Shown here piece by piece: positions 9,632 to 50,692 of a stretch of 64,000 bases of DNA. A model generated the notes under the pieces. It was given only the letters and a program-made list of their open reading frames with translations, was not told where the DNA came from and did no database searches. The DNA comes from an uncultured Bdellovibrionales bacterium (GTDB taxonomy: Bacteria; Patescibacteriota; Minisyncoccia; Moranbacterales; UBA1568), in assembly GCA_964612055.1 (NCBI GenBank), contig CAZTBI010000001.1:356824-420823 (forward strand). The letters run 5' to 3'. Position 1 is the first letter of the stretch, and the number at the start of each line of letters is the position of its first letter. A program made the translations under genes and the position numbers.

Positions 9632-10426
9632 TTACTTCTTAAGAGAAACGATTTTCTTGTACTCGGCATTGAATTCTTGAATCGCCTCATTGATCATCGG
9701 GTGTGATTGCTCTCCGAGTTTTTTCTCTCGAGCAAAGGCTGAAGCTTCAAAGAGCGACTCATGCGTCCCCATATCAAACCAAGCACCCTTGATCACCCGA
9801 ACGTCCAGCTCCTGCTTCTCCAGATAGGATCTCTGCACATCGGTGATTTCGATTTCGCCACGATTCGACGGAGCAAGCGCCTTGGCTATTTCCACCGCTC
9901 GGCTGTCAAAGATGTACACGCCCGGGATAGCATAGTTACTTTTTGGCTGCTCTGGCTTTTCTTCGATAGAAAGTACCTTGTTATCCTCACCGAATTCCAC
10001 TACTCCGAAACGTTTTGGATCAGTCACTTCCTTGGCAAAGATCCGACCACCCTGTTTAAATGTCTGGATCGCTTCAGTAAAATCATCTTCGAAGATATTA
10101 TCCCCCAGTATCAGTGTCGATGACTCGCCATCCAAAAAATCCTCAGCCAAGAGATAGGCTTCCGCCAACCCGCGCGGTGACTTCTGCACCACGAACGAGA
10201 GATTGACACCGAACTTACGAAACATTGATCCCAAAAGATTGAGGAAGTTTCCTGAGTGCTCCGGCGCCACGATGATCAAAATATCCTTGATACCCGCCTT
10301 GATCAAAGTGTCGAGCGGATAAAAAATCATCGGTCGATCATAGACCGGTAAAAGCTGCTTCGAGGTAATGGCCGTGAGCGGCAGAAGCCGCGTCCCTGTA
10401 CCACCAGCGAGAATGATTCCTTTCAT
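9632..10426 (-). CDS. rfbA: Glucose-1-phosphate thymidylyltransferase (RmlA/RfbA)
   Basis: 264 aa. MKGIILAGGTGTRLLPLT...SKQLLPVYDRPMIFYPL closely matches RmlA. Confidence 0.85.
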   Translation of the reverse strand: MKGIILAGGTGTRLLPLTAITSKQLLPVYDRPMIFYPLDTLIKAGIKDILIIVAPEHSGNFLNLLGSMFRKFGVNLSFVVQKSPRGLAEAYLLAEDFLDGESSTLILGDNIFEDDFTEAIQTFKQGGRIFAKEVTDPKRFGVVEFGEDNKVLSIEEKPEQPKSNYAIPGVYIFDSRAVEIAKALAPSNRGEIEITDVQRSYLEKQELDVRVIKGAWFDMGTHESLFEASAFAREKKLGEQSHPMINEAIQEFNAEYKKIVSLKK

Positions 10427-23154: not shown

Positions 23155-24387
23155 TCAAGAGATCTCGTTTTTCGCCTTGATTTCAAGGTATTTTCGACCT
23201 TTCAATCGTTCTGGGAAATATTCCTGGGCCGCCTCTTCGTTAGTCTTAAAGTCTGGAGTATACTTGTAGCCTTTCCCATACTCAAGCTCTTTCATAAGTT
23301 TCGTAGGAGCATTGCGGAGATGAAGCGGCACTGGTTCATTCGGAAAATTTCTTACGTCCTCTTTAGCTTTTCCATACGCCACATAGAGCGCGTTTGATTT
23401 TTTGGATACTGCCAAATACACCACCACCTGAGCGAGATGCACTTCACACTCTGGCATCCCCAGCATCTGACAAGCCTGAAAAGCTGCCACCGCCTGAGGC
23501 AAAGCAAACGAGTTAGCAATACCAATATCTTCTGAGGCAAAACGCACGAGCCGTCGTGCAACATAAATCGGGTCCTCCCCCGCCTCGAGCATCCGAGCAA
23601 GGTAGTACAATGCGGCATCGGCATCATTCCCTCGCAACGATTTGTGCAAAGCAGAGATGATATTGTAGTGCTCCTCGCCATTTTTATCGTAGAGAAGATG
23701 TGAACGCTTCACCACTTGCTCGACCGTCAAGGCATCAATATGAGTCTTTTTCAACGCTGCTGCTTCAAGCGTATTGAGCGTCATTCTCGCGTCACCGCCC
23801 GAAACCGCTGCAATAAATGAGAGTGCCTCATCGGTAGCAGTGACTTCTTTTCCGAAATACTCCTTACTTTGCTTGAGCGCCTGTTGCATCAGATTAACCA
23901 GAGTCGACTCGCTGTGCTTATCAAGTACCAAGACACGTGCCCGAGAAAGAAGAGCGGCATTCACTTCAAAACTGGGATTTTCCGTGGTGGCACCAATCAA
24001 AATAACCGTACCACGTTCGACATGCGGCAATAAACTGTCCTGTTGCGATTTATTAAAACGATGGATCTCATCAACAAAAAGAATGGTCTTCTTCCCTTGC
24101 TTCTTGTTTTCTTCGGCTTCGGAAAATACGGCTCGCATATCCTTCACTCCGCTTCCCACAGCAGACAACTGACGAAATTCTGCCTGAGTCTCTTTGGCAA
24201 TCAAGAGTGCCAAAGTAGTCTTGCCGCTTCCCGGCGGGCCCCAAAAAATAAGGGAGGGTATACGATCCGCCTCAATGGCTTCACGGAGAAATGATCCGTC
24301 ACCAAACACCTTTTCCTGTCCCAAGAAATCCTCCAGCTTTTTCGGCCGTAATCGTTCAGCCAGCGGAATATATGTATTTTTATTCAT
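23155..24387 (-). CDS. rarA: Replication-associated recombination protein A (RarA/MgsA AAA+ ATPase)
   Basis: 410 aa with Walker [10 protein letters not shown] and the RarA C-terminal domain. Hairpin plus T6 terminator at ~23103-23126. Confidence 0.9.
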
Positions 24388-24427
24388 AGAGCAGAAGTTT
24401 CAAAGCGTTCATCTTTGAGTGCAAGTT

Positions 24428-24513
24428 CGAGGCGTCGGTGAGGAACTCCGTAAGCCGTACTCGTAGAGTACCGTGTCGAGTACCGGAGCCGAGAACAAAG
24501 AAATGTGCCAAAG
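24428..24513. repeat. Copy 1 of a conserved ~90-nt intergenic element (xth-rarA spacer) containing hairpin GTACTC-GTA-GAGTAC
   Basis: ~85% identical to 34221-34312 over ~90 nt. Confidence 0.7.
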
Positions 24514-24520
24514 ATGGACG

Positions 24521-25330
24521 CTAAGAGAGAATAATACCGACTGGGCAATGATCGGAGCCTAGTACCTCAGGGAGAATAAAAGCTTCTTTGATTCGCGGCT
24601 TGAGAGACTCACTCACCAGGAAGTAATCAATGCGCCAACCGACGTTGCGCGCTCGAGAATTCGCAAAGTGCGACCACCAAGAGTAGTGGCCATTCCCTTT
24701 CTGAAAGAGACGAAAGGTATCAACAAAACCAGCATCAACGAAACTCTGAAAACCTTCCCGTTCTTCGTCGGTAAAACCATGCTTCCCAATATTCCCCTTG
24801 GGATTGGCCAAATCATCTTCGGTATGGGCGACATTCAAATCACCACAAAAAATCACTGGTTTCTTTTTCTCCAAGTCCCTGCAGTAGGCCAGAAATGCCG
24901 GATCCCACTGCTTATGACGCAAGGGTACCCGACTCAAATCTTCTTTGGCATTCGGAGTATAGACAGTCACCACAAAAAAATCTTCAAACTCAAGGGCAAT
25001 CACTCGGCCTTCAGAGCACGGGTCGCCATAACCATCCGCCACCAAATTGAACTTTTTTATAATTTTTTCCGGAAAACCATTGCGAACGGAGAGTGGCTTG
25101 GTCTTGGTGAAGATAGCAGTTCCGGAATAGCCTTTGCGATCGGCAGAATTCCAATACTCCTCATATTCCGGCAGATCAATCTCAGCCTGCCCCTGCATCG
25201 CCTTGGTCTCCTGAAGACAGAGAATATCCGGTTGGTATTTTTCAATAAAAGGAAGGAATAGCCCCTTCTTATGGACGGCTCGGATGCCATTCACATTCCA
25301 AGAAATAAGAGTGATTGGTTTTTTTGGCAT
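24521..25330 (-). CDS. xth: Exodeoxyribonuclease III (Xth, AP endonuclease)
   Basis: 269 aa with EEP-fold motifs (SWNVNG, CLQETK, GDLNVAH, SDHCPV). Confidence 0.9.
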   Translation of the reverse strand: MPKKPITLISWNVNGIRAVHKKGLFLPFIEKYQPDILCLQETKAMQGQAEIDLPEYEEYWNSADRKGYSGTAIFTKTKPLSVRNGFPEKIIKKFNLVADGYGDPCSEGRVIALEFEDFFVVTVYTPNAKEDLSRVPLRHKQWDPAFLAYCRDLEKKKPVIFCGDLNVAHTEDDLANPKGNIGKHGFTDEEREGFQSFVDAGFVDTFRLFQKGNGHYSWWSHFANSRARNVGWRIDYFLVSESLKPRIKEAFILPEVLGSDHCPVGIILS

Positions 25331-32797: not shown

Positions 32798-34174
32798 CTA
32801 GTTCGCGGTCAAACCTATTATTTCAGTTTCCAAAATGCCATTCACATCCACGCTCCCAGTTTCAGTGCCATATCCGGCAAGCGATACCGAAATATCATAT
32901 GTTTCTGCAACGAGTTCCGGAAGCGCTGTCGGAAAATAAGCGTATCCGTACTGATCAGTCACTACCGTCGTGTCATATAAAAGAGTTGTATTTGTCAGCT
33001 GGACACTGGCTCCAGCAAGCCCTGTCCCATCAGCCTGATTCTGCACTTTTACCAACACCGAACCGATATTCTTATCAAGCATGATGACACTCACGTCGGT
33101 CGCGCTGCCCGCTGTCGCTGAAAATTCATTGGCAGACGTCGTTCCTGGAGACAGTTTCAAGAACTCATAGTCCGTACTGCTGGTCGTGATCGCATAATCA
33201 CCATAACTCTCGCCCGGATAACTTGCTCCTCCTGAAGCATCGGTCGTGCCCGTATCTGAAAATCCCGTCACGTCCTCTCCGGTCCCTGGATCGGTCCCCA
33301 AGACACGACCGCCCGTCAGAGTATATCCGATACTCGGAATCGCCGTACCAAATGGATCTTCTGTTGTCAGGGTAATATCGGACGACTGATCCATGACGAT
33401 CGTCTTCTGATTCAGAGCATCCGCAACCACGGAGGCATGCACATCGACCGGATTAAAGACCGAAGTCGGATAGGCAGGATAGGTCGTCGCGCCATAATAG
33501 CCGCTCTTTGAGACGGTGACCATGTATGCTTCCGTGCCAGCTGGAGCACCAGGCAGCATCAGGTTCCCCGTAGAATCCGTACTCCCCGTCACATCGACTC
33601 CGGCAGCACCGTTGACGATATGGACGCTAGCACCAGTCACGCCCGTACCACTAGCATCGAGCACATTTATGGAGAGGACTCCACCACCGGTCGATGACTC
33701 AACGCCGTTGGGTGAAAAGTTCCCGAAAATAGCTACCGTCTGATCCGTACCAAGATTTCCCCAGGACACCGTAACACGCACCCGCTTATAGTCAGTAGGA
33801 ATCACATCACCCGTAGAGACAGTGCTATCAAAACTATCGTCGACATACTGAACAAATGTATGGACCTCATAACGTATTGTATTGACGCTAATCGTCTCGT
33901 CTTCGGCCAAATCGCCAGCCGGAATACCGCTCGTTGTTCCAATAGCATCGTATTCAATACTCCGGATAATCTCCATTTTCTGATTCGCAAGCGCCGTTGC
34001 TCCAAGGCGATTTTTCGATTCGATTATGAGACGCGTCCCGACTGAGTAGGTTTGGAGAAAAACGATACTAATCAAAGAAAAGAGAAACAAGAAAACCAAC
34101 GCCTCAATAAGCGTAAAACCACGATACGAATGTCGAATTTTGAATTTTGAATTTTGAAAAAAATACCGCATCAT
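32798..34174 (-). CDS. Large type IV pilin-like protein with repeated Ig/CarboxypepD_reg-like beta domains
   Basis: Canonical prepilin motif RGFTLIEALVFLFLFSL. 458 aa with repeated ...GASV.V.NG..G...TG.TDS.G... segments. Confidence 0.7.
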   Translation of the reverse strand: MMRYFFQNSKFKIRHSYRGFTLIEALVFLFLFSLISIVFLQTYSVGTRLIIESKNRLGATALANQKMEIIRSIEYDAIGTTSGIPAGDLAEDETISVNTIRYEVHTFVQYVDDSFDSTVSTGDVIPTDYKRVRVTVSWGNLGTDQTVAIFGNFSPNGVESSTGGGVLSINVLDASGTGVTGASVHIVNGAAGVDVTGSTDSTGNLMLPGAPAGTEAYMVTVSKSGYYGATTYPAYPTSVFNPVDVHASVVADALNQKTIVMDQSSDITLTTEDPFGTAIPSIGYTLTGGRVLGTDPGTGEDVTGFSDTGTTDASGGASYPGESYGDYAITTSSTDYEFLKLSPGTTSANEFSATAGSATDVSVIMLDKNIGSVLVKVQNQADGTGLAGASVQLTNTTLLYDTTVVTDQYGYAYFPTALPELVAETYDISVSLAGYGTETGSVDVNGILETEIIGLTAN

Positions 34175-34220
34175 TTTATCTTATCCATTTTCTAAGACTT
34201 TCATTTTTTGAGGGCAGTTG

Positions 34221-34312
34221 TAGGCGTCGGTGAGGAGCTCCGTAAGCTGTACTCGTAGAGTACAGTGTCGAGCACCGGGACCGAGAACGACCAAATGCAC
34301 CAAAAAATGAGG
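34221..34312. repeat. Copy 2 of the conserved ~90-nt intergenic element (pilC-pilin spacer), hairpin CTGTACTC-GTA-GAGTACAG
   Basis: ~85% identical to 24428-24513. Confidence 0.7.
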
Positions 34313-34315
34313 GTC

Positions 34316-35536
34316 TCACTTTATGTTTTCGAGTACGGAATACATCGGCTGTAACATCGCCACCGCAAAAAATCCCACGCCACCACCGATAAATAGCATC
34401 AGGATCGGCTCAATAATCGACGACATGTTCTTGGTGATCTGCGAAACCTCTTCTTCATAAAATTCCGCCAACCGTTGGAGCACTGTTTCTGTTTTACCCG
34501 TCTCCTCTCCCACTTCGAGAATCTGCGGCACCAGAAGAGGAAAAATAGCCGGGTACTTTATAATAACTTTGGAAAGGTCGACACCTTTCTGTACCTCAGC
34601 AATCGCTTCTTCCAGGGCATCTTTGTAATACACATTGGAAAGAGTCTTTGAAACAATATTCAAAGCATTTACCACCGAGACACCGCTCTTTAAAAGTGAA
34701 CTGTAAATGCGAGCAAAGCGAGCGCAGTTCACTTTGATAACAATATTCCCCACGATAGGCATATGCACAAAGAGGAATCCAAAAAATCGCTTCCCCGCTT
34801 TCGTGCCGGAAAAAAGCTTCACCGCTACAATCGTGATAACAGCCAAAGAGACTGTAAGAATGGCGTGACCACGGATGAAGTCAGAGAGCGCCATAATGGC
34901 CCGAGTGGTAGCCGGCAACTCGACATTCATATCCTTGAACACACCGGTAATTTTCGGCAGGATATAAACCAACATGAGGATACCGATACCGATCATTGCC
35001 ACCACGATCACTGCGGGATAGATAAGGGCGCCACGCACTTTCGACAGGAGGTCATTTTCTTTTTCCAACTGCAAAGCCAAGATATCAAGCACTTCCTCGA
35101 GATTACCGCTCACCTCTCCGACGTATACCATGTTGACGAACAGCTCGTTGAAAACAGCCGGGTAGGCTCCTAATCCTTCTGAAAGCGTCTTTCCTGCCTG
35201 GAGATCATCGTTGACACTCTCGAGAATCTTCTTAAATGTCTTGTTCTTTGTCTGGAGAGAAAGGTTCTGGACCGCCCGAGAAATCGTCAACCCCGAAGAC
35301 ACCATGACCGCCAGGTTACGGGTAAAGGTCATCTTTTCTTTGAGGGGCACCTTCTTGAAACGATCAAGGAATTTCACCTGAAGACTCGATCCCTCTTCTT
35401 CTTGTTTGAAAGATGTGAGAAGAAGTCCCTGGGCACGAAGATCCTGAGCCAAAGATTTTTCATCCTTGGCCTCTATTTCTCCACCAGAAGACTCACCCGT
35501 CACAGCGTTTTTCGCCGTATAGAAAAATTTCGGCAT
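34316..35536 (-). CDS. pilC: Type IV pilus assembly platform protein PilC (GspF family)
   Basis: 406 aa with two GspF repeats and three TM segments (…GEVSGNLEEVL…, …GEETGKTETVL…). Confidence 0.85.
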   Translation of the reverse strand: MPKFFYTAKNAVTGESSGGEIEAKDEKSLAQDLRAQGLLLTSFKQEEEGSSLQVKFLDRFKKVPLKEKMTFTRNLAVMVSSGLTISRAVQNLSLQTKNKTFKKILESVNDDLQAGKTLSEGLGAYPAVFNELFVNMVYVGEVSGNLEEVLDILALQLEKENDLLSKVRGALIYPAVIVVAMIGIGILMLVYILPKITGVFKDMNVELPATTRAIMALSDFIRGHAILTVSLAVITIVAVKLFSGTKAGKRFFGFLFVHMPIVGNIVIKVNCARFARIYSSLLKSGVSVVNALNIVSKTLSNVYYKDALEEAIAEVQKGVDLSKVIIKYPAIFPLLVPQILEVGEETGKTETVLQRLAEFYEEEVSQITKNMSSIIEPILMLFIGGGVGFFAVAMLQPMYSVLENIK

Positions 35537-49318: not shown

Positions 49319-50692
49319 CTACTGCTTCGCCTCTGACCGAAGAAATGCTCGCGCACTCACCCAGTCTTTGACTTTCTCCTTGGTGAAGTGCCGATAATAC
49401 GGCGAGAGCCTCTGCCAAATCTGACGAATTCTCGCCGTGACAGCCCCGACCTTCATACCAAAGTATTCGCCTGCTTCTTTGTAACTTCTCGTACTCCCGG
49501 AACCGGGGAGGCCATAGCAATAGCAGAACAGCTCATGATCTCGTGTGGTAAGTCTCTCCCGAGATGTAGCCCACACCATGTCAAGCCTGGCCTGGATGAG
49601 CTCTAACCGCCCTGCCACTGAAAGGGTAGGGCTCGAATGCGTCACAGGCTTTTCCTTCCCTGCCACTGAAGGAGCGAGGTCCGAATGCGTTGAAATGTCT
49701 TCCCAGGAGAACTCACCCTGAGCGATTTCTTCGAAATAAGGAACGCCCGCCATCGCCCGTTCAAACACCTCTTCGGTGAAGATATCCTTGGGCACTTTCT
49801 TCCATATACCCTCCTTGATCTGCCGGATCCGCTCTCTTGTCAGATTGAACTGCTTCCCCGTCTCCTCAAGAGTTCTTCTCTCCCGATCAGCATCGAGACC
49901 GTAGAAATAGATGAACACATCGGAACGGTCATGCGCCATACCGGTACGGAGATACCGAATCAACAGGCTCACTTTTCTGGAAATTTCCTCCAGTTCTTTC
50001 CGAGCCTCAATGACCAAAGAAGGCTCTATGCTGTTCGGGTCGGCGACGGTATCGCTGATGGTGAGGTCTCCAGATTCTCCCTTGGTTTTCATAGGCTGCT
50101 CAAGCGAGGCCACCCCTCTCTCGTGAAGGAGGCGCAACATCTTCTCTACCTGCTTCTCCGTCAGCCCTGTCGCTGCGGCAATGTCTCGTCGGGTTGGCAC
50201 CACACCTTGAGCCAGTAAGCGCTCTTGGACATAGAGTACCTTTGAAACCAACTCTCCGACATGCGTAGGGAGACGGATGAGGCGACCCTGTTGAATGACA
50301 GCCTGAGCAATGCGTTGACGGATCCAGTAGGTCGCATACGTAGAGAACGCTGCCTTCGCCGGATCATATTTTCGAGCCGCTATCATGATCCCGATGGTTC
50401 CTTCTTGCATCAAGTCCTCAAATTCGAGGCCTTTTCTCAGGTATCGCCGGGCTATCACGTGCACCAATCCAAGATTGTGTCGAACCATCTTGTCGAGGGC
50501 GGCCTCATCTCCGACGCGGATACGCGCTGAGAGGGCATTGACCTCTTCTTGAGGAAGTACCGGGTAACGTTTCCGATCCGAAGGGAGACGACGTAGGGCC
50601 GTCTGACTATCGGAAGAAGGAGCTTCTCCGCTCAGATATCCCTCCCTCTCCAGAGAGGCCTCTGAGACGAAGTCTTGATCGACGTCTTTCAT
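49319..50692 (-). CDS. RNA polymerase sigma-70 family factor with an apparent tandem duplication of region 4
   Basis: Regions 1.2-2 (YATYWIRQRIAQAV), 3 and 4 (YFYGL...TLEETGKQFNLTRERIRQI), then a second region-4-like segment (CYCYGL...SYKEAGEYFGMKVGAVTARIRQI) at aa ~360-430. AGGAGG RBS. Confidence 0.85.
   Translation of the reverse strand: MKDVDQDFVSEASLEREGYLSGEAPSSDSQTALRRLPSDRKRYPVLPQEEVNALSARIRVGDEAALDKMVRHNLGLVHVIARRYLRKGLEFEDLMQEGTIGIMIAARKYDPAKAAFSTYATYWIRQRIAQAVIQQGRLIRLPTHVGELVSKVLYVQERLLAQGVVPTRRDIAAATGLTEKQVEKMLRLLHERGVASLEQPMKTKGESGDLTISDTVADPNSIEPSLVIEARKELEEISRKVSLLIRYLRTGMAHDRSDVFIYFYGLDADRERRTLEETGKQFNLTRERIRQIKEGIWKKVPKDIFTEEVFERAMAGVPYFEEIAQGEFSWEDISTHSDLAPSVAGKEKPVTHSSPTLSVAGRLELIQARLDMVWATSRERLTTRDHELFCYCYGLPGSGSTRSYKEAGEYFGMKVGAVTARIRQIWQRLSPYYRHFTKEKVKDWVSARAFLRSEAKQ
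49611..49690. repeat. Imperfect 32-bp direct repeat (period 48 bp) inside the sigma-factor gene linker
   Basis: CCTGCCACTGAA...CGAATGCGT occurs twice. Encodes the 16-aa repeats ...APSVAGKEKPVT / ...PTLSVAGRLELIQ. Confidence 0.55.

Follow-up and report, generated by a model that had tools for sequence, protein, structure and literature searches.

Orphan structured noncoding RNA motifs (those of Weinberg and Breaker, in Rfam) are short and intergenic, with covarying stems, conserved internal loops, and a narrow taxonomic range. Small structured RNAs lying opposite the leader of a pilus gene include FinP, opposite traJ of the F plasmid, and the antisense RNAs of Neisseria pilE and Synechocystis pilA11; these overlap the ribosome-binding site or the coding start and have one target each. 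The 4.5S SRP RNA, 6S RNA, and bacterial Y RNA offer the likeness of an irregular rod of ~115 to 135 nt with paired 5' and 3' ends and conserved internal loops, and 6S RNA likewise occurs as two paralogues in one genome in Bacillus. Hairpins that fill the spacer between codirectional genes are represented by the papB-papA-type intercistronic stem-loops and by REP/BIME sequences, and pilus operons are known to exploit differences in mRNA stability (papBA).

The element described here occurs twice in the window, by which we mean the whole 64-kb stretch of DNA that was analyzed. It differs from the orphan motifs in having no match in Rfam 15, in lying antisense within a codirectional operon, and in coming from bacteria of the Candidate Phyla Radiation (CPR). 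Unlike the FinP-type RNAs, it is found between xth and rarA as well as beside a pilus gene, in some cases there alone, and it has conserved internal loops. Unlike the papB-papA stem-loops and REP/BIME, it has a structure selected on the strand opposite the genes, is low in copy number, and is far longer than REP. The literature searched for noncoding RNAs of CPR bacteria, Moranbacteria, or Patescibacteria yielded no description of it.

Two copies in the spacers of codirectional genes

The preliminary description of this DNA had reported two similar intergenic copies of ~90 nt. The similarity is real: in an ungapped register with an offset of 9792, positions 24428 to 24513 and 34220 to 34305 are identical at 72 of 86 sites (83.7%), and a repeat finder, which gives 105 nt at 81% for the two, lists no longer direct repeat in the window. 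The core words GGTGAGGANCTCCGTAAGC and GTACTCGTAGAGTAC occur exactly twice each in the window, where 0.01 to 0.03 occurrences would be expected by chance. The size, however, required revision. Beyond the coordinates first noted, the flanks of the copies diverge in sequence yet are mutually complementary, as in the pairing of CATCTTTG/CAAAGATG against CATTTTTTG/CAAAAAATG; the full units therefore extend over 24405 to 24521 and 34196 to 34315. The ends had been placed ~10 nt past the upstream stop codon and ~40 to 47 nt before the next start codon, whereas the units reach the upstream stop codon and fall 18 to 21 nt short of the downstream start codon, so that both nearly fill their spacers. Separated by 9.8 kb and oriented alike, the copies share the hairpin first noted, and copy 1 is flanked by xth and rarA, both on the minus strand, as had been claimed. 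The features are as follows.

24405 to 24521, plus strand: copy 1 (the xr paralogue), a 117-nt rod-like hairpin in the xth-rarA spacer; its final base lies within the xth stop codon
24457 to 24471, plus strand: apical hairpin GTACTC-GTA-GAGTAC of copy 1 (helix 5)
34196 to 34315, plus strand: copy 2 (the pp paralogue), 120 nt, in the pilC-pilin spacer; it ends 1 base before the pilC stop codon
34249 to 34263, plus strand: apical hairpin GTACTC-GTA-GAGTAC of copy 2
24521 to 25330, minus strand: xth (exodeoxyribonuclease III; TIGR00633, E = 6.6e-88), convergent with copy 1
23155 to 24387, minus strand: rarA (AAA+ recombination factor; NCBIfam), divergent from copy 1
34316 to 35536, minus strand: pilC/gspF-family type IV pilus platform protein (NCBIfam), convergent with copy 2
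32798 to 34174, minus strand: 458-aa pilin-like protein (weak pilin N-terminus matches), divergent from copy 2

The gene for the 458-aa pilin-like protein is the first of a pilin/pilMNO block; its orthologues have CarboxypepD_reg domains and precede genes for N_methyl pilin, PilX_N, and PilM. Throughout the window (1 to 64000) almost all genes lie on the minus strand and the GC skew of the plus strand is uniformly negative (-0.08 to -0.16); ARAGORN found no tRNA genes in the 64 kb. Two 33-nt direct repeats, 79% identical and 48 nt apart, at 49610 to 49690 within a 457-aa open reading frame (49319 to 50692) probably reflect a repeat at the protein level.

At element-bearing loci (24388 to 24405 and 34175 to 34195 in the window), the leader of the rarA or pilin gene is 18 to 25 nt long, AU rich, and without an obvious Shine-Dalgarno sequence; none was found in the 18-nt rarA leader of the window. 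At two element-free loci (9990 to 10003 in both L018 and L020, where L numbers denote related loci), AAGGG or GAAGGA stands immediately 5' of the ATG. A 10-codon upstream open reading frame on the minus strand at 24405 to 24425 runs from the 3' arm of the sense-strand hairpin to a stop that overlaps the rarA ATG. It has counterparts in L008 and L013; its AUG is lost in L009, and it was rejected as a conserved feature and probably exists only because of the stem sequence. Three tandem GAATTTT heptamers (34135 to 34155) lie within the first codons of the pilin-like gene on the minus strand and are also present in L018.

A conserved rod supported by compensatory changes

Thirteen copies that are 60 to 95% identical and ~117 to 135 nt long across homologues share one fold, a single long unbranched rod of five helices. 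RNAalifold agrees on this fold with 6, 12, and 13 copies and, as an independent prediction, returns the same rod with 25 of 41 pairs covarying. In the window, the predicted minimum free energy on the plus strand is -47.8 kcal/mol for copy 1 (z = -4.8), compared with -34.3 on the minus strand, and -51.0 for copy 2 (z = -4.1).

Covariation was scored in a 12-sequence alignment made with MAFFT and in a 13-sequence alignment based on the covariance model, the latter being biased toward the structure by construction. The results, with the MAFFT alignment given first, were as follows.

Cells holding a standard pair: 94.9%; 96.9%
Pairs altered on both sides: 22 of 40; 24 of 40
Covariation score, observed against shuffled mean: 0.42 against 0.19; 0.53 against 0.19
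Shuffles attaining the observed values: 0 of 500; 0 of 500
Paired cells in a control with the 3' partner slid by 1 to 3 columns: 33 to 44%; 36 to 44%

Compensatory changes of this extent, matched by no shuffle, speak for the small RNA that the preliminary description had listed among its options. Helix 3, for example, changes from UCGGU/ACCGA to CAAG/CUUG, CAGAC/GUCU(A), or CAGC/GCUG in diverged copies, and the outer stem, whose arms covary, carries substitutions along its whole length. The internal loops are purine rich and keep their sequence (GAGGCG, UGAGGA, GUAAGC, GUGUCGAG-ACCGGA, and AAC-A-GAAAU); constant across copies are GAGGCG, UGA before GG, G-AAGC, G-G-(C)GAG-ACC-GA, and AAC-A--AAAU. 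The largest of these loops (~7/5 nt) lies between the covarying helices 3 and 4. The apical loop varies among homologues (GUA, GAAG, CAUA, and UCG), as does the upper stem, though the stem itself is kept.

Conservation differs between the two sites. Copies at the xth-rarA site are 85 to 91% identical between genomes, compared with 67 to 76% for the adjoining rarA and xth DNA. Copies at the pilC-pilin site are 62 to 65% identical, compared with 70 to 76% for pilC DNA, and the fold is nonetheless kept.

Comparison with known RNA families

A scan of the whole window against Rfam 15 gave no match of any kind at the gathering score. With the threshold relaxed to E <= 10 there was only noise (6A at 13.8 bits, mir-1276, MIR1509, and the like), and no family recurred across three copies. 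On the strength of its covariation the element can be put forward as a new candidate noncoding RNA family, absent from Rfam.

Individual candidates were also set aside. The bacterial small SRP (4.5S) RNA does not fit, as the element has no GNRA tetraloop and none of the symmetric and asymmetric loop motifs of domain IV (GGAA...AGCA), and no SRP family appeared at E <= 10. Nor does 6S RNA, which binds the sigma-70 RNA polymerase holoenzyme, templates pRNA synthesis, and is 150 to 200 nt long compared with 117 to 135 nt for the element; the element lacks the large central bubble by which 6S RNA mimics an open promoter, and it matched no 6S family. No rsr gene was seen near either copy, and the Rfam models for Y RNA gave no match. 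Possible likenesses to the hammerhead and hairpin ribozymes, the K-turn, the sarcin-ricin loop, 5S rRNA, and the 23S rRNA 3' domain do not fit the covarying helices and have no Rfam support. An integron attC site was rejected because the core sites R''(RYYYAAC)...R'(GTTRRRY), read by eye, are present in the required order on neither strand; in addition, the conserved housekeeping and pilus genes and the fixed synteny across genomes are unlike the variable gene content of attC sites, which stand at the 3' end of cassettes with an integrase close by.

The structure-bearing strand

Several measures indicate that the structure is selected on the plus strand of the window and is therefore antisense to every flanking gene. 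Consensus pairs read on the plus strand include 39 G-U and 4 A-C combinations (38 and 7 in the model alignment), counts that are per sequence rather than per evolutionary event and are inflated by relatedness; counted per pair, a G-U occurs somewhere in 12 pairs and an A-C in 7. Several positions form wobble pairs on the plus strand in many copies, among them U10-G119, in 6 of 13, and G55-U75, in 10 of 13. The alifold energy is -44.6 on the plus strand versus -24.3 on the minus strand, and all 12 tested copies are more stable on the plus strand, by 2.5 to 14 kcal/mol. The GC skew of the element on the plus strand is +0.12 to +0.21, compared with -0.12 for the 64-kb window; the element is thus G rich on a strand that is otherwise C rich, and the wobble asymmetry runs counter to the background composition. 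In 13 of 13 loci the structure-bearing strand is opposite the operon.

Distribution among Moranbacteria

Scanning the representative genome of each GTDB species for exact words gave 13 matches, one per genome, of which 9 were due to chance and 4 were true homologues: 3 Candidatus Moraniibacteriota MAGs and 1 MAG labeled Bdellovibrionales, all with the element between xth and rarA and oriented relative to them as in the window. Homologues of the RarA and PilC proteins of the window are overwhelmingly from Moranbacteria, and the contigs reached through them supplied more copies as well as empty sites. A metagenome exact-word scan with TCGGTGAGGNNCTCCGTAAGC gave 4 matches, all by chance in unrelated GC-rich sequence, and a scan of viral contigs with a gapped motif gave 1 chance match in a coding region that the covariance model did not confirm. 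Within the window, the calibrated covariance model, run with filters off, found only the two copies (24400 to 24526, 131.7 bits, and 34193 to 34318, 130.3 bits; the next-best hit was below 20 bits), and it found no further copies in ~350 kb of related loci. A recent local duplication without conservation in relatives, which had been considered at the outset, is contradicted by the homologues across Moranbacteria genomes, and as far as sampled the element family appears to be restricted to Moranbacteria.

Occupancy varies at both sites. The xth-rarA site is occupied in the window and in L005, L008, L009, L013, and L019; it is without the element in L018 (4-nt spacer), L020/L021 (overlapping genes), and L022, where an acylphosphatase gene lies between. 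The pilC-pilin site is occupied in the window and in L018, L020/L021, L024, L025, L027, and L029/L030, and it is without the element in L026, L028, L031, and L034, with spacers of 61, 37, 14, and 15 nt. Both copies are present in the window and in L019/L024, which overlap at 100% identity and so represent one genome carrying both. L018 and L020 have the pilC-pilin copy only. L005 and L034 belong to one contig, that of a genome with the xth-rarA copy only and a 15-nt pilC-pilin spacer. As the element is missing at either site in some genomes, it is dispensable at each.

The acylphosphatase gene of L022 (92 aa, 9668 to 10001) occupies the xth-rarA junction in place of the RNA element, which marks the junction as a site of repeated rearrangement. 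Two contigs break at the element: that of L008 (1 to 121) begins exactly at the element's 3' end, and that of L005 (6850 to 7020) stops ~45 nt past its 5' side. A second, almost identical copy, variation within the population in whether the element is present, or assembly troubled by the palindrome could explain these breaks.

Interpretation

Strand specificity, low copy number, and covarying stems with fixed loops are together the signature of a functional structured RNA. We hold with moderate confidence, on the evidence of comparative sequence analysis, that the element is a structured small RNA gene of ~117 to 135 nt specific to one lineage, Candidatus Moranbacteria (CPR/Patescibacteria), with two paralogues here, and that it would act in trans via its loops. 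That genomes may have it at one site, at the other, or at both suits a trans-acting RNA gene in an incidental position better than a leader dedicated to one gene. Greater conservation of the xth-rarA copies than of the DNA beside them speaks for selection. An RNA transcribed from the plus strand would fold into the five-helix rod, and the conserved loops would make it a trans-acting riboregulator, most likely through a protein partner. Since the operon mRNA must traverse the same DNA, such an RNA would in addition match the leader of the pilin or rarA gene downstream with perfect complementarity; antisense action would therefore be a built-in second possibility, and a protein-binding or antisense riboregulator is probably what the element amounts to. 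Among the options first listed, covariation and conservation across Moranbacteria favor the small structured RNA, whereas the shared leader, the protein-binding site, and the miniature repeat are weakened. A leader of the minus-strand genes is unlikely given selection of the structure on the opposite strand, and a double-stranded protein-binding site would not yield compensatory changes.

Promoter and terminator signals were sought at both copies. One candidate promoter was found, for copy 2:

34154 to 34182, plus strand: sigma-70-like match TTGAAA-17-TATCTT, of a kind no more frequent than in shuffled sequence

Its TTGAAA (34154 to 34159) overlaps the end of the GAATTTT repeat. No sigma-70-like match lies upstream of copy 1 on the plus strand, and a comparison of 13 copies revealed no hexamer shared at a fixed distance upstream. 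AU-rich CATAAN strings, all that a comparison by eye showed upstream of the copies, were rejected as a motif, being the reverse complement of the downstream start-codon region at varying distance. No terminator-like site was found at either copy on either strand; an intrinsic terminator requires a U-tract immediately 3' of a short GC-rich hairpin, and the U-tract is absent at both copies. Duplication of ~120 nt into a second operon would have needed a promoter inside the rarA coding sequence, a consideration that counts against an sRNA gene, as do the faster divergence of the pilC-pilin copies relative to pilC and the dispensability of the element at each site.

It is possible, though improbable in our estimate, that the element is a cis-encoded antisense RNA that pairs with read-through operon mRNA at the pilC-pilin and xth-rarA intercistronic leaders. 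Through RNase III cleavage or transcriptional interference, such an RNA would set expression of the downstream gene apart from that of the upstream gene, and the stem-loop would make the RNA stable and quick to pair, as in FinP/traJ, CopA, and RNA-OUT. The antisense orientation at every locus is as this account would have it, as are the placement of the element always directly upstream of a short-leader gene without an obvious Shine-Dalgarno sequence, when element-free loci have AAGGG or GAAGGA, and the location of the pilC-pilin site where the pilus machinery genes give way to the pilin genes, a point at which expression is expected to differ. A simple antisense RNA, however, needs no conserved internal-loop sequence, yet the loops are kept across copies of widely differing identity. 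The RNA is not tied to one target, as one genome has it at xth-rarA only and others show the reverse, and the lone promoter candidate would place the start ~15 nt upstream of the pilin ATG, leaving the ribosome-binding region uncovered.

A more specific proposal, which we regard as doubtful, is that the element is a CPR-specific ribonucleoprotein RNA, a minimal trans-acting rod whose conserved purine-rich loops, one of them of tandem G-A type (UGA-GG/CC-RGA), would bind a cellular protein and couple expression of the DNA-uptake pilus (pilin) with RarA and Xth recombination/repair.

A hairpin acting on the sense strand, as an mRNA processing site, a 5' stabilizer of the downstream cistron, or a weak terminator in the manner of papB-papA, would need no separate promoter, and the element exactly fills the spacer between codirectional genes and still folds stably on the minus strand (-34 to -55 kcal/mol). 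This explanation is nevertheless very unlikely. Read on the minus strand, the pairs hold 38 to 39 A-C mismatches and only 4 to 7 G-U, with the U10-G119 and G55-U75 wobbles turning into C-A mismatches; the alifold energy is about half that of the plus strand, and every copy folds worse. The excess of G over C runs opposite to the composition of the surrounding minus-strand genes, and the hairpin has no U-tract.

Equally remote is a selfish miniature element (MITE, REP, or IS200/IS605 derived) or a strand-specific single-stranded DNA hairpin, inserted twice and kept by descent only. The element is an imperfect palindrome present as two copies in one orientation less than 10 kb apart, close relatives vary in its presence at both sites, and it coincides with the breaks of two MAG contigs, all of which would suit such an origin. 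Yet only two sites are ever occupied in the window and the ~350 kb of related loci, which weakens the miniature repeat that had been among the first options; a MITE/REP-like repeat would require many dispersed copies. No flanking direct repeat indicative of target-site duplication was found by comparison with the empty sites of L018 and L020, there are no terminal inverted repeats of fixed sequence, the outer arms differing between copies and covarying, and no transposase was seen nearby. Compensatory evolution extends down to 60% identity, and the xth-rarA copies are more conserved than their flanking genes. The plus strand also does not appear, from GC skew and gene orientation, to be the lagging-strand template, so that hairpin exposure of the IS200/IS605 type is not favored.

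Significance

CPR bacteria have tiny genomes with little spare DNA, and the bacteria that carry the element are episymbiotic and DNA scavenging. With so little spare DNA, a ~120-nt element that evolves by compensatory change is likely to be doing something. No structured noncoding RNA specific to the Candidate Phyla Radiation was found described in the literature searched. The element offers a candidate new Rfam family for which an alignment, a structure, and a covariance model are in place. Were it only an antisense RNA or a processing signal, it would be of local interest; as a CPR ribonucleoprotein RNA, if that proposal were true, it would belong to a new kind of regulatory RNA and not to the simple antisense transcripts. 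The type IV pilus of CPR bacteria is thought to serve attachment and DNA uptake, and an element that lies within a type IV pilus operon, with a paralogue beside recombination and repair genes, gives a concrete handle on regulation in this uncultured lineage.
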